A stretch of 64,000 nucleotides of DNA from NCBI GenBank assembly GCA_963822305.1, contig CAWGHF010000026.1, positions 11,093 to 75,092 on the forward strand, read 5' to 3'. A model generated the notes under the pieces. It did no database searches. It was not told where the DNA came from and was given only the letters and a program-made list of their open reading frames with translations. The stretch comes from an uncultured Actinomycetota bacterium (GTDB lineage: Bacteria > Actinomycetota > Actinomycetes > Mycobacteriales > Mycobacteriaceae). Positions 16,493 through 21,218 of the stretch are shown here, in pieces. Both the position numbers and the translations under genes were made by a program. Every line of letters begins with the position of its first letter. Positions within the stretch are counted from its first letter, which is position 1.

Positions 16493-17360
16493 TCAGGCGG
16501 TCAGTGCCGCGGTGGTGACCTCCTGTTCTGTCGAGGTGTCTTCGGGGGTTCGTGATTTACTCAGGACATCGAGGCCGAGGTAGCGGCGGGATTCGGCCCA
16601 TTCGACGTGTTGTTCGGCCAGCACGGCGCCGACGAGGCGGATCAGGGCGCCCAGGTCGGGGAAGATGCCGACGACGTCGGTGCGGCGGCGGATCTCTTTG
16701 TTGAGCCGTTCTTGGGGGTTGTTCGACCAGATTTGTCGCCAGATTTGTTTGGGGAAGCTGGTGAACGCGAGCAGGTCCGGGCGGGCGTTCTCGAGGTGCT
16801 CGGCGACCTTGGGGAGCTTGTCGGCTAGCGCATCGATGATGCGGTCATATTGCGCAGCAACGGATTGCGCATCAGGTTGGTCAAACACCGAGTGCAGCAG
16901 CGTGCGTACCCACGGCCACGACGCCTTGGGAGTAATCGCCATCAGATTGGTCGTGTAATGCGTTCTGCAGCGCTGCCAGGCCGCGCCGGGCAAGGTGGCC
17001 CCGACCGCGGACACCAGCCCGGCGTGGGCGTCGGAGGTGACGAGTTTGACCCCGGTCAGGCCGCGGGCGGTCAGCGACCGCCAAAAGGTGAGCCAGCCGG
17101 CTCCGTCCTCGGCGGTGCTGACGTCGATGCCCAGGATCTCGCGGTAGCCCTCGGCGTTGACCCCGACCGCGATCAGCGCGTGCACGTTGACCACCCGGCC
17201 CTGCTCGCGGACCTTGAGCACCAGGGCGTCGGCAGCGACGAAGGTGTAGGGGCCGGCGTCCAGCGGCCGGGTGCGGAACGCCTCGACGGCGGTGTCGAGT
17301 TCCTTGGCCATCACCGACATCTGTGACTTCGACAACGACGTGATGCCCAGGGTTTCGACT
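16493..17360 (-). pseudogene. IS256 transposase, C-terminal part
   Basis: VETLGITSLSKSQMS...FVAADAL...VTSDAHAGL...WQRCRTH...SNNPQERLNKEIRRR. Confidence 0.9.
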
Positions 17361-17429
17361 GATATGTAGGTGATTTTGTCAAGTGGCAGGGTGAAGCGGC
17401 GGCCGCGACCGTCGTCGTGGCCGCCGCTT

Positions 17430-17660
17430 CCTTTGACCAGATGAGTTCCGCTGTTCGGGTCGAGCGTGTCGTGTCGACGCGTGTCAGTCTGAAATGCGCG
17501 GATTGGTTACCGCAGGACGGACCTTCGAATCGGAGTTAACCAGCGGGTCTAGCGTCGAGCGTCGTCAGTTGTGTCACAACGTGATTGCTCATAGTCGAAT
17601 CGCGGATCACTCCAGGACGCTTGTCGCCCCGTCAGCGGGTGTTCATCTGGACAATTCTGG
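17430..17660 (-). ncRNA. Putative bridge/seek RNA of IS110-A
   Basis: Segments match both target flanks and both donor-end halves, each pair flanking a small hairpin (see findings). Confidence 0.65.
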
Positions 17661-17666
17661 GTGTGG

Positions 17667-18749
17667 TCAGTCCGGCATGACTGCCAATGACCAACACCAT
17701 CCGGCCAGTTCGCGGGCTATCGCCACGTTGGCGACCACCGGGCGCTTCTTGCGGGCGTCGAACGCGCTCCAGCGGGTGTGCAGACGCCGGTTGGCGGCTT
17801 GGCCACGGGCCCGGGCAGCCGGCGAGGCCAGATCCCAGCGGCGCCGCAGCTCGGCTCCAGGCTGATACCGGTTGCGGTGGTGCCAGGCGGCCTCGACCAA
17901 CAGGCGGCGAACGTGTCCGTTGCCGGTCTTGGTCACCCCACCCTGGCTGCGAGAGTCTCCCGAGGAGTACTCGCAAGGCACTAACCCGACATAGGCGCCG
18001 ATGGAGCGCCCGGTCAACCGGTGCCAGTCGCCGATCTCGACAGCGAGGCCAAACGCGGTCAACGTCGCGACCCCACGGATGCAGCCCAACCGGTGCACCA
18101 CCGGGGTGAACTCACTGGCAGCAGCCAACGCCGTGATCGCGTCATCGAGGCGATTTCGGCGGTCCAGGCAGGCCAGTGTCGCGTCGAACGCCGCCTCGTA
18201 ACTCAGCTGCAGGGCCTGGTCGTCGAAACGCTGGGTGCGTAACCACCGTTCGTGATCGCGAGTCCAGGCCTTTCCGCCGGAGTAGACGATGCCTTGGCGG
18301 AGCAGCAGTTTCGAGACCCGATGTCGTGCGGTCATCAGATCTCCGCGGCAGTCCTCGCGGGCGCGTACCAGGTCGCGGGCGGCTTCCTGGGTGGCAGTGG
18401 GGACTGTCACGGCGGTGATCTGCCCTAAATGCAGGAGCCTGGCCAGATGCGCGGCATCACGGGTATCGGTCTTGACGCGCTCCCCGGACGGGCGGATCAA
18501 CTTCGACGGGGCGGCTACCTCACACGCGATGCCGGCCGCGGTTAACGCTCTGGCCAATCCGAACCCGGTCGGGCCGGCCTCATAGGTCACCGCTACCGGG
18601 CCGGGGAGATCACCGAGCCACGCCACGATCTCCGCGTGGTCAGGAGTCAACCGTCGCTGGAACACCTCTCCGGTGTCCCCGTCCAAAGCACACGCAACAA
18701 CCGAACGTGCGTGCACATCCAAGCCAACGCTCGTACGCTGAATCTTCAC
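17667..18749 (-). CDS. IS110-family recombinase/transposase (intact)
   Basis: GLDVH, YEAGPTG, KTDTRDA (DEDD), EYSSG catalytic Ser loop, TKTGN; GGGAGG RBS before GTG. Confidence 0.92.
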   Translation of the reverse strand: MKIQRTSVGLDVHARSVVACALDGDTGEVFQRRLTPDHAEIVAWLGDLPGPVAVTYEAGPTGFGLARALTAAGIACEVAAPSKLIRPSGERVKTDTRDAAHLARLLHLGQITAVTVPTATQEAARDLVRAREDCRGDLMTARHRVSKLLLRQGIVYSGGKAWTRDHERWLRTQRFDDQALQLSYEAAFDATLACLDRRNRLDDAITALAAASEFTPVVHRLGCIRGVATLTAFGLAVEIGDWHRLTGRSIGAYVGLVPCEYSSGDSRSQGGVTKTGNGHVRRLLVEAAWHHRNRYQPGAELRRRWDLASPAARARGQAANRRLHTRWSAFDARKKRPVVANVAIARELAGWCWSLAVMPD

Positions 18750-18949
18750 TGGGGCCTCCCACATCTTGTGGCTCTACCGGCCAGGACCAACTTCCTGTCG
18801 GCAACCCACGTTCACATGTGAGCTTTTGCGGGGCGCTGCGCTCCGCCGTGGGGTGAGGAAAATTTGCGCGCATGCCCCGGCGGGGTGCGTGGTTGGTTCT
18901 GGTTGTGCCGGCGGATCGAGCGGGTGGATGCTGGTGGGGTGTTTCGGGT

Positions 18950-19130
18950 CGACCCCGGTCTCTCTGTGTTGCCAGTGAGCCCGCATGTGAGCTTGGGGGT
19001 GGAGGGCACGATCTTTTGTCCGCGGGAACCGTGGAATGTTGCCTGTTGAGCACGAGTGTCAGACTTCTGTTTTATCCGCCTCTCCCCGGAACACGGACCC
19101 GGACAACGGAACACGATCTGAGGAAGAGGT
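18950..19130 (+). ncRNA. Putative bridge RNA in the left end of IS110-B
   Basis: Non-coding leader contains CATGTGAGCTT (18984-18994), identical to the left target junction. Confidence 0.5.
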
Positions 19131-19140
19131 GATCGTGTCG

Positions 19141-20405
19141 ATGGAGGTGATTCACCCGCGGTGCGCGGGTATCGACTGTCTCAAAGAAGGACGCGAAGGT
19201 CTGTGTGCGATCCAGGGCCACGGCGGGCGCAAGCGACGTCGTCGACGGTGACCACCTGGGGCGTCGATGACCGGGCAGATCCTGGCGCTGACGCGAGCAT
19301 CTGCTCGCCGAGCGAGGTGCACCTGCGTGGTGATCGAGTCCACCGGCGATTACTGGAAGCCGTTCTACTACCTGCTCGACGACGCAGCTGAACATGATGC
19401 TGGTCAACGCCCAGCGCCGTGCGCAACGTGCCCGGCCGCAAGACCGACGTGTCAGACGCCGCGTGGCTGGCCGATCTGGGCGCCCACGGGCTGGTGCGGG
19501 CCTCGTTCGTGCCGCCCGCACCGATCCGGGAACTGCGGGATCTGACCCGGGCCCGCACCATCATCACCCAGGAACGCACCCGCGAGATGCAGCGGCTGGA
19601 GAAACTGCTCGAAGACGCCGGCATCAAACTGTCCTCGGTGGCCTCCGACATCACCGGGGTCTCCGGGCGGGCGATGCTCGAAGCACTCATCGCCGGGCAG
19701 ACGCGACCCGGCGGTGCTGGCCGATCTGGCTAAGCGCACGGCTGCGGCACAAGATCCCCGCACTGACCGAGGCGCTGCAGCGGACGATTCAGCGACCACC
19801 ACGCGTTCATGACGCGACTGTATCTGGATCGCATCGACGCCCACAGCGCCGACATCGCGCGCCTCAGATGCCCGCATCGAGGAGGCGATGGCAGCCCTTT
19901 CGTCCCGCCCGGGACCTGCTCGATGAGCATCCCGGGCTTCTCACCAGATCGTCGCCGAGGTGTTCATCGCCGAAACCGGCGCCGACATGAGCGTGTTCCC
20001 CACCGCCGGGCACCTGGCATCCTGGGCAGGAACTCTCACCGGGATCCAACGAATCCGCCGGACGGGTCAAATCCACCAAGACACGGCCCGGCAACCGCTA
20101 CCTCAAAGGCGCCCTCGGGCATCGCCGCTCTGTCGGCCGCACGCGCTCGAAGAACACCTACTTCGCCGCCAAGTACCGACGCATCGCCATCCCGACGCGG
20201 ACCCGATGCGCAGCCCTCGTCGCCGTCGAACACGCCATGCTCATCGCCGCCTGGCAACATGCTCACCAACGGCGACTTCTACAGCGACCCCGGCGCCCGA
20301 CTACTACACCGCACGCCAACCAGCCCGAACCAAAGCACGAGCCATCAGACAACTCGAAACCCTCGGATACCGAGTCACTTGGAACCACTCACCAACACCG
20401 CGTAA
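19141..20405 (+). pseudogene. IS110-family (IS1558-like) transposase, heavily frameshifted
   Basis: MEVIHPRCAGID, VIESTGDYWKP, PGRKTDVSDAAWLA, FIAETGADMSVFPTAGHLASWAG, IRQLETLGYRVT in shifting frames. Confidence 0.85.
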
Positions 20406-20480
20406 CTCACCACCGAGCCGGGTCAGCCGTTGTGCTCACCCCATTTTGTGTCAGCGAGGCCCCAGCCCCTCATACCGTCT

Positions 20481-20848
20481 AGCTTGTCCATCCGCCGCGT
20501 CGAGACGCCCAGCAGATAACAGGTCGCCACCACCGTAGTCAACGCCCCCTCGGCCCGCTTGCGCCGTTCCAGCAGCCAATCCGGGAAGTAGGAACCCTGT
20601 CGCAGCTTCGGGATCGCGAGATCCAATGTACCTGCACGGGTGTCGAATTCACGATGTCGGTAGCCGCTGCGCTGGTTGGTCCGTTCGGTGCTGCGCTGCC
20701 CGTAACCCGCACCGCACAGGGCGTCGGCTTCGGCGCCCATCAGGGTGTGGATGAACGTGGCGAGCAGCTCGCGCAGCACGTCGGGGTGGGTGGTGGTGAG
20801 TCGTTCGGCCAGTACCGTGGGCATGTCGATATCGTGGGCAGTGGTCAT
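20481..20848 (-). pseudogene. IS256 transposase, N-terminal part
   Basis: MTTAHDID...QRSGYRHREFDTRAG...IPKLRQGSYFP...GVSTRRMDKL, which joins in frame to VETLG at 17358. Confidence 0.9.
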
Positions 20849-21218
20849 CGCGTTGATTCCTTTGCTCGAGTGACTTTGGCGGGTCTCTCGAAGAATCACG
20901 CGATGACCTTCAATCATTGGGCTACGACACGCCGAGCGCTCTGATCAGGCCCGACTCGTACACCACTCTGCTGGACGCAACCGAGCTCACACGCGATCGC
21001 GCCGAGGTTCGTCGCGACCCCACTGGCAGACCTACGCTGCGGTGGCTAATGCGGTTCAAGCTCTGGCCTTGGTCGGCGTCCGATTGAGATCGTCCGCCCA
21101 CGCTTCGGCGACCTCTGGAGTTAGCCGACGTCCGGCCGTCGTGGCTTCGATCCGACGGTCTGGCGGCGAATTTCATCCGCAGACCACGCTGGGCGGAGGC
21201 TCTGCTTGAGTCGGGAGA

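Follow-up and report, generated by a model that had tools for sequence, protein, structure and literature searches.

The window, a stretch of 64,000 nucleotides from an uncultured Actinomycetota bacterium, contains two insertion sequences (IS) of the IS110 family, one of which (IS110-B) lies inside the left end of the other (IS110-A). This arrangement raises the question of whether the position of IS110-B was dictated by guide segments in its own leader, as an earlier note on this DNA had proposed. The proposal started from the sequence CATGTGAGCTT, which indeed occurs twice on the plus strand, at 18815-18825, across the left junction of IS110-B, and at 18984-18994, in the leader of that element. 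The window holds no third copy, and the number expected from 100 dinucleotide shuffles was 0.00.

A three-layer nest of insertion sequences

The nest has three layers: an IS256-family transposase gene is split by IS110-A, and IS110-B lies within the left end of IS110-A. The two pieces of the IS256-family gene, both on the minus strand, are open frames that match the IS256 profile (NF033543). The 3' part (16493-17358) scored 234 bits over profile positions 93-337, and the 5' part (20481-20917) corresponds to profile positions 2-83. The gene, which runs from 20917 down to 16493, is cut between D-K-L and V-E-T, and reading resumes at 17359. The core dinucleotide of IS110-A, CT, is present as a left copy at 17359-17360 (ggtttcga-CT-gatatg; AG in the orientation of IS110-A) and as a right copy at 20479-20480 (cataccgt-CT-agcttg); the joined IS256 frame requires only one of them. 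The order of insertion events was IS256, then IS110-A, then IS110-B, and the nest is now accounted for base by base.

IS110-A lies on the minus strand and has an intact transposase gene (17667-18764; 365 amino acids), which matched PF01548 and PF02371 and scored 204.9 bits with NF033542 (cut-off, 140 bits). Its coding sequence is free of indels when compared with that of the closest relative, L034. The right end, 3' of the transposase, is non-coding (17361-17666), with homology to relatives from 17359 onward. A genus-wide search for relatives of IS110-A gave 28 copies with a complete, uninterrupted end, all from the same genus, and these served to define the boundaries in the nest. In all 28, the base corresponding to 20455 is contiguous with that corresponding to 18822. 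The left end of IS110-A is thus in two parts: an inner part (18765-18822), which ends in CACATGTG, the left half of the IS110-B target, followed by the core AG (18821-18822), and an outer part of 24 bp (CGAGGCCCCAGCCCCTCATACCGT; 20455-20478), split from the rest of IS110-A by IS110-B, whose first seven bases are the right half of the target. Once reconstructed, the left end measures 82 nt and the right end 306 nt. This layout, in which the gene for an IS110-family recombinase is flanked by a short left end and a long right end, is that of an IS1111-type element; no convincing sub-terminal inverted repeats were found in IS110-A. Its right end also contains a strong GC-rich hairpin (17390-17433). 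The match of this hairpin to mir-761 in Rfam was below threshold (22.7 bits, for a gathering score of 82) and was set aside as a chance match.

Boundaries and family of IS110-B

The 28 uninterrupted relatives read CACATGTGAG(C/T)GAGGCCCCAGCC..CATACCGT-CT. At the base equivalent to 18822 they run on as (C/T)GAGGCCCC, without any IS110-B, and the pre-insertion site in IS110-A is CACATGTG-AG-CGAGGCC. Comparison with these empty sites and with relatives of IS110-B placed the element on the plus strand at 18823-20454 (1632 bp, including one copy of the AG core). AG is duplicated at the junctions (18821-18822 and 20453-20454), while the empty sites have a single AG; AGC is common to both junctions of the window copy, but across the family only AG is. 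The left end, which is the leader, occupies 18823-19136 (314 nt) and the right end 20406-20454 (49 nt). The right end closes at 20454 with ..TTTTGTGTC-AG and is followed by 24 bp of IS110-A and then by the CT core of IS110-A (20479-20480). In the relatives of IS110-B, the left end begins with C/T-T.. and continues into a conserved hairpin, and the right end closes with ..TTTTCG(N5)-AG. IS110-B therefore has a 2-bp core at both junctions, with neither a longer target duplication nor terminal inverted repeats. It is present as a single copy in its genome.

These boundaries differ from those first proposed. The earlier note had IS110-B inserted 10 bp from the terminus of IS110-A, with CT at both junctions; the 28 uninterrupted relatives give a distance of 24 bp, the dinucleotide is AG, and the right junction is devoid of CT. 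A right junction at the CT at 20469-20470 is excluded by the 28 empty sites.

The DNA of IS110-B is 87% identical to that of an intact orthologue (L099, positions 1551-2894), which scored 84.9 bits with PF01548, 74.3 bits with PF02371 and 241.1 bits with NF033542 (cut-off, 140 bits). By this intact orthologue, IS110-B is predicted to encode a recombinase with a DEDD (RuvC-like) and a Tnp domain. According to the published criterion (PMC11208160), elements of the IS110 group have a long left end, located 5' of the gene, together with a short right end. Judged by its long non-coding left end, with putative guide RNA segments upstream of the gene, and by its short right end, IS110-B is an IS110-group element.

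Guide segments in the leader of IS110-B

The guides were mapped from an alignment of leaders taken from about 20 relatives of IS110-B that are located at different sites, together with a table of the flanks. In the family, a segment that we call guide 2 consists of seven bases plus AG, in the same sense as the left flank and the core, and another, guide 1, ends in CU and lies about 20 nt upstream of guide 2 and the CU dinucleotide. In the window, target guide 2 (CAUGUGAG; 18984-18991, plus strand) falls within the leader copy of CATGTGAGCTT and is sense to the left flank CATGTG and the core AG. Target guide 1 (GGUCUCUCU; 18957-18965, plus strand) is antisense to the core and right flank, AG-C-GAGGCC, with which it forms seven Watson-Crick pairs, one G:U pair and one mismatch, at the first base past the core. 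In most other copies of the lineage guide 1 reads GGCCUCUCU, which makes 8 of 9 pairs Watson-Crick and removes the G:U pair. Since guide 2 matches CATGTG-AG and guide 1 pairs with AG-C-GAGGCC, the leader appears to specify both halves of the 15-bp site in IS110-A.

Directly after guide 2, a CU dinucleotide (18992-18993, plus strand) equals the first two bases of the left end of IS110-B; by analogy with the handshake guide of IS621, we infer that it plays a handshake role. Further downstream, the putative donor guide GUGUCAG (19056-19062, plus strand) equals the last five bases of the right end plus the core AG (20448-20454), and it changes together with the right ends of relatives (GTGTCAG, GAGTGAG, GAGAGAG and GTAAGAG). 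The module UGUUGCC..UGAGC(C/A)CG is the same before every sense guide, and it includes the TGAG at 19047-19050.

The dependence between guides and flanks was assessed with one representative for each of nine guide classes, by comparing cognate pairings with deranged ones. The left flank agreed with guide 2 at 48 of 63 positions, against 21.2 in the derangements, and the right flank with guide 1 at 35 of 63 positions, against 20.0. For the handshake-like dinucleotide and the first two bases of the left end, there were 16 matches out of 18 where 9.6 were expected. None of 133,496 derangements reached the observed values for left flank, right flank or handshake. In a comparison fixed beforehand as a possible refutation of leader-directed insertion, relatives with other guides were found to sit at other sites, which matched their own guides. 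The outcome is a guide map, validated by covariation, for a clade of actinobacterial IS110 elements, which shows two target guides, one donor guide and the handshake-like dinucleotide; it is backed by nine natural guide/target pairs and could help in mining for bridge recombinases.

The short right guide suggested earlier, TGAG at 19047-19050, had to be given up: it lies inside UGAGCACG, which is invariant in relatives with different targets, and it had been designed against the wrong flank (CTCA). No donor guide for the left end was found in the leader, where the homologous position is occupied by the invariant ACCGUGGA. Two other candidates were rejected. The CTTTTG in the leader hairpin (at about 19013-19018), considered as a left-end donor guide, lacks conservation among relatives whose left ends differ, and the 2-4 variable nucleotides that separate GUUGCC from GAGC, considered for each loop as a short guide, bear no consistent relation to the flanks. 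CCGTGG occurs at 18849-18854, in the DNA of the left end just past the conserved covarying hairpin GGGGCGC..GCGCTCC, and again at 19029-19034, the RNA position expected for a left-end donor guide. Both copies, which might pair with each other, are invariant in relatives.

The minimum free energy of the single-sequence fold of the leader was no better than that of shuffled sequences (z = -0.20). RNAalifold gave a single stem with a compensatory change, GGAGRGC/GCYCUCC, a long-range stem around the donor part. The leader had no match in Rfam, and a scan of it for promoter consensus sequences found nothing.

Recurrent occupation of IS110-A left ends

We searched species-representative genomes, and metagenomes as well, for the 20 nt that surround guide 2; three genome and seven metagenome matches to this pattern lay in unrelated DNA and were discarded as due to chance. 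One Actinomycetota metagenome-assembled genome (MAG; L072) contains an IS110-B copy, 87% identical and with an intact gene of 413 amino acids, at the same base of an IS110-A copy that is 76% identical to that of the window. Another Actinomycetota MAG (L069) has a copy that is 86% identical, within a fragment of an IS110-A left end. In Mycobacterium sp. SM1, a different IS with the same guide is present in seven near-identical copies. Three of the seven are at the same base of IS110-A-type left ends, which are distinct from each other and whose outer flanks are unrelated, and the four others are at look-alike sites (..GATGTG-AG, ..CACATG-AG and ..CACGTG-AG). M. innocens has one copy, at ..TTATGTG-AG. 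In every case located in an IS110-A end, the genome scan found an outer IS110-A segment of 24-26 bp after the insert.

The metagenome scan gave ten IS110-B-type contigs, nine of them in IS110-A-type left ends at the same base; the tenth is at a site outside IS110-A, the left half of which matches the guide at 9 of 9 positions. L118, L119 and L132 represent one locus, and further metagenome contigs may be one locus sampled twice. In all, same-guide elements occupy the same base of IS110-A-type left ends at 11 or more loci beyond the window, in a tally that draws on the two Actinomycetota MAGs, three SM1 copies and no fewer than five separate metagenome loci. Including the window, there are thus at least 12 distinct filled ends, all with one insertion base and one orientation, for more than 30 empty ones. 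Six of about 18 same-guide copies are outside IS110-A, at look-alike sites with 0-2 differences in the left half.

The host IS110-A copies belong to several subfamilies and are 75-83% identical to that of the window, and their IS110-B copies are 85-87% identical. The genome of L072 has four empty IS110-A copies and one filled copy; the latter (L080) shows 100% identity to one of the empty copies (L078) along 1459 bp. No other perfect target was found in the genome of the window. Together, these observations argue for repeated, guide-directed insertion into IS110-A ends rather than for one inherited composite. The proposal that the leader programmes insertion into the end of IS110-A was in this way borne out, by the covariation of guides with flanks, by recurrent insertion at the same base and by the identical empty sibling.

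The different IS of Mycobacterium sp. SM1 and M. innocens MK13 (L063-L075) carries the 20-nt stretch of IS110-B around guide 2. It is about 71% identical to IS110-B in part of the gene; its leader is shorter and different, and its left end begins with TTCCCTATCC. The common stretch suggests that a guide module either arose by convergence or was exchanged. A search for the second target guide of the SM1 element, for the right flank, did not identify one.

State of the window copy and of the filled hosts

The transposase reading frame of the window copy (19137-20405, plus strand) is broken. Alignment with the intact 414-codon L099 orthologue and with four other relatives showed 22 insertion events of 1-2 nt and two deletions, so that the gene is non-functional as written, its frame being broken 24 times. 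The 22 insertion events are private to the window copy, being found in no relative, and most are in contexts that are invariant among relatives; for this last reason 'allele doubling' was rejected as their source. The leader (18868-19081) also contains several small insertions. The other copies of IS110-B measure 1594-1596 bp and have open frames, compared with 1632 bp for the window copy, and the neighbouring IS110-A and IS256 sequences are clean. The window copy thus appears to be either dead or badly assembled. The bias towards insertions would be odd for natural decay and may instead reflect the unpolished consensus of a repeat. The junctions are sound in either case, since they are reproduced in independent assemblies.

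Only 3 of about 12 filled IS110-A copies are full-length (the window, L080 and L130). The remaining ones are truncated to between 40 and about 1000 bp and retain the side adjacent to IS110-B. These stubs are L065, L067 and L068 (SM1), L069, L125, L126, L117, L121 and L118; the three from SM1 end about 185-205 bp from the junction, and their outer flanks are unrelated. Such a pattern would fit inactivation of IS110-A by the insertion, with ascertainment bias as a possible contributor.

Preferred explanation and alternatives

Taken together, these data make it very probable that IS110-B is a bridge-RNA-guided IS110-group element, the guide of which is set to the 15-bp sequence CATGTG-AG-(C/T)GAGGCC, 24 bp inside the left ends of elements of the IS110-A kind. 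As extrapolated from the biochemistry of IS621 and ISEc21, the element would excise as a circle with the joint ..GTGTC-AG-CTTTTG... In the recombinase-RNA complex, the bottom strand of CATGTG-AG would be paired to guide 2 and the top strand of AG-x-GAGGCC to guide 1. Strand exchange would then take place at AG, and the CU that follows guide 2 would pair with the incoming left end in the manner of a handshake guide, again by extrapolation from IS621 and ISEc21. The left end of IS110-A would make a suitable niche, being present in multiple copies, doing the host no harm and showing much stronger conservation than the body of IS110-A. The window copy itself could not act alone, because its gene is broken and its guide 1 has a G:U pair and a mismatch at the first base past the core.

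It is improbable that IS110-B was inserted a single time, long ago, and that the composite of the two elements has since been inherited or moved as a unit, the nesting reflecting common descent. Such a history would fit the three genomes in which the sole IS110-B copy is inside IS110-A, and the intact outer ends of IS110-A in the window make movement of a composite conceivable. It is difficult to reconcile, however, with the filled and empty IS110-A copies that are 100% identical in one genome, with the spread of IS110-B copies 85-87% alike over several subfamilies of hosts that are 75-83% identical to the IS110-A of the window, with the near-identical SM1 copies in three differing stubs whose outer flanks are unrelated, or with the use of the same site by a second IS lineage. 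Furthermore, the composite was not seen at two different sites; L118 and L132, considered as evidence for its mobility, are one and the same locus. Movement of a 3.1-kb composite by the IS110-A recombinase, which the earlier note had envisaged, is therefore unsupported, the more so since most filled IS110-A copies are truncated.

Slightly less probable still is that the site is chosen by DNA structure or by a protein bound to the end of IS110-A, and that the match in the leader is a by-product of the junction. The left end of IS110-A is highly conserved and could bind the IS110-A recombinase, and the fold of the leader is without statistical support. Against this, the matching segments are 130-170 nt inside IS110-B, away from the junction; they covary with the flanks in relatives that have quite different targets, and same-guide insertions outside IS110-A are at sites that resemble the guide and not IS110-A. 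We give least credence to the view that the nesting was created by misassembly in a draft or metagenome-derived genome. The confinement of the 22 insertion events to IS110-B would agree with it, but both junctions are base-perfect with respect to the empty sites, the same junctions are found in independent assemblies, one of them an isolate genome, and a poor consensus within IS110-B would not create junctions.

Beyond the guided insertion of IS110-B, a wider reading is conceivable, though somewhat doubtful. In this scenario the IS110-group lineage would be a specialised hyperparasite of mycobacterial IS1111-type elements, two diverged IS would have converged on a guide module or exchanged it, and insertion would sever the outer site of IS110-A from its gene and so lead to decay. 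The AG-less CATGTGGTGAGG (8 of 28) would be escape variants, and the polarity of gene and guides would be mirrored with respect to IS621.

Comparison with known systems

In IS621, the left target guide is sense to the left target and CT and lies 5', while the right target guide is antisense to CT and the right target and lies 3'; the latter is followed by a 2-nt handshake guide, which pairs with donor bases beside the core (PMC11208160, PMC11208158). IS110-B resembles IS621 of E. coli (Durrant 2024, PMC11208160; Hiraizumi 2024, PMC11208158) in having a DEDD/Tnp recombinase and a predicted non-coding RNA in a long left end. The two also have in common a sense guide, an antisense guide and a handshake(-like) dinucleotide matching the donor. 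A further common feature is a donor guide equal to the element end plus the core, as is a 2-bp core at both junctions. In contrast with IS621, the core of IS110-B on the gene strand is AG and not CT, the order of its guides is mirrored with respect to transcription, and it has a long antisense guide of up to 9 nt. Because the guide order of IS110-B equals that of IS621 when the CT strand is taken as top, the IS110-B family is, by analogy and under the published IS621 convention, probably IS621-like with gene and RNA lying the opposite way relative to the core. The natural targets also differ, being the end of another IS for IS110-B and REP-type repeats for IS621.

IS4321 and IS5075, which insert in the inverted repeats of Tn21, share with IS110-B a fixed target and orientation in a conserved terminal region of a mobile element, with the outermost bases of the host element left on the far side. 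They differ from it in that the host of IS110-B is an IS110-family (IS1111-type) IS and not a Tn3-family transposon, that IS110-B belongs to the IS110 group (guide RNA upstream) and not to the IS1111 group, and that it is found in mycobacteria and soil Actinomycetota. The IS1111-attC group (ISPa21, ISPst6, ISKpn4 and ISPa25) targets the attC of integron cassettes (Tetu and Holmes 2008; Post and Hall 2009; PMC11187229), and the transposases of ISKpn4 and ISPa25 are 46% identical, with the same guide segments and site (PMC11187229). IS110-B and the SM1 element are comparable to this group in that diverged transposases go with common guide segments and a common site on mobile DNA, but the target is the left end of an IS instead of attC, and the subgroup and the host phylum are different. 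ISEc21, with its seekRNA upstream of tnp (Siddiquee 2024, PMC11187229), is by its description like IS110-B in its IS110-type layout and in having short segments that match both flanks; it targets another kind of site.

IS110-B is a further example of a known mechanism, an RNA-guided IS110-family element fixed on a conserved end of a mobile element, and involves no new mechanism; what is unusual is that the host is a member of the same family. A literature search found no paper on this pairing of an IS110-group with an IS1111-type element, which is weak evidence of absence. The locus offers a naturally occurring bridge-RNA element whose programmed target is a second RNA-guided element of the same family, and extends the known tendency of IS110/IS1111 elements to occupy conserved regions of mobile DNA, such as the inverted repeats of Tn21, attC and REP. 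It also provides an annotation rule for mycobacterial genomes, in which IS110-A-type left ends may be found split at CACATGTG-AG.

Variant and related targets

Eight of the 28 uninterrupted IS110-A relatives (L059, L061, L044, L053, L055, L049, L054 and L051) read CACATGTGG(T/C)GAGGCC and lack the AG core. These AG-less variants would not be cut by IS110-B and could be escape variants. Two further relatives have CACATGCAG at the target position. The IS110-A copies closest to that of the window (L076 and L079; 86%) have CACATGTCAG there, with one G-to-C change in the left half, and are unoccupied despite the presence of an IS110-B copy in that genome.

A sister clade of IS110-B (L012, L013, L014, L016 and L021) targets a palindromic repeat that resembles a terminator or a REP sequence, GCGAGC-AG-ACGC(N)AAAGCCCCC...GGGGGCTTT(N)GCGTCTGCTCGC. 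The guides of this clade, GAGCAG and UUGCGUCU, match both halves of the target.
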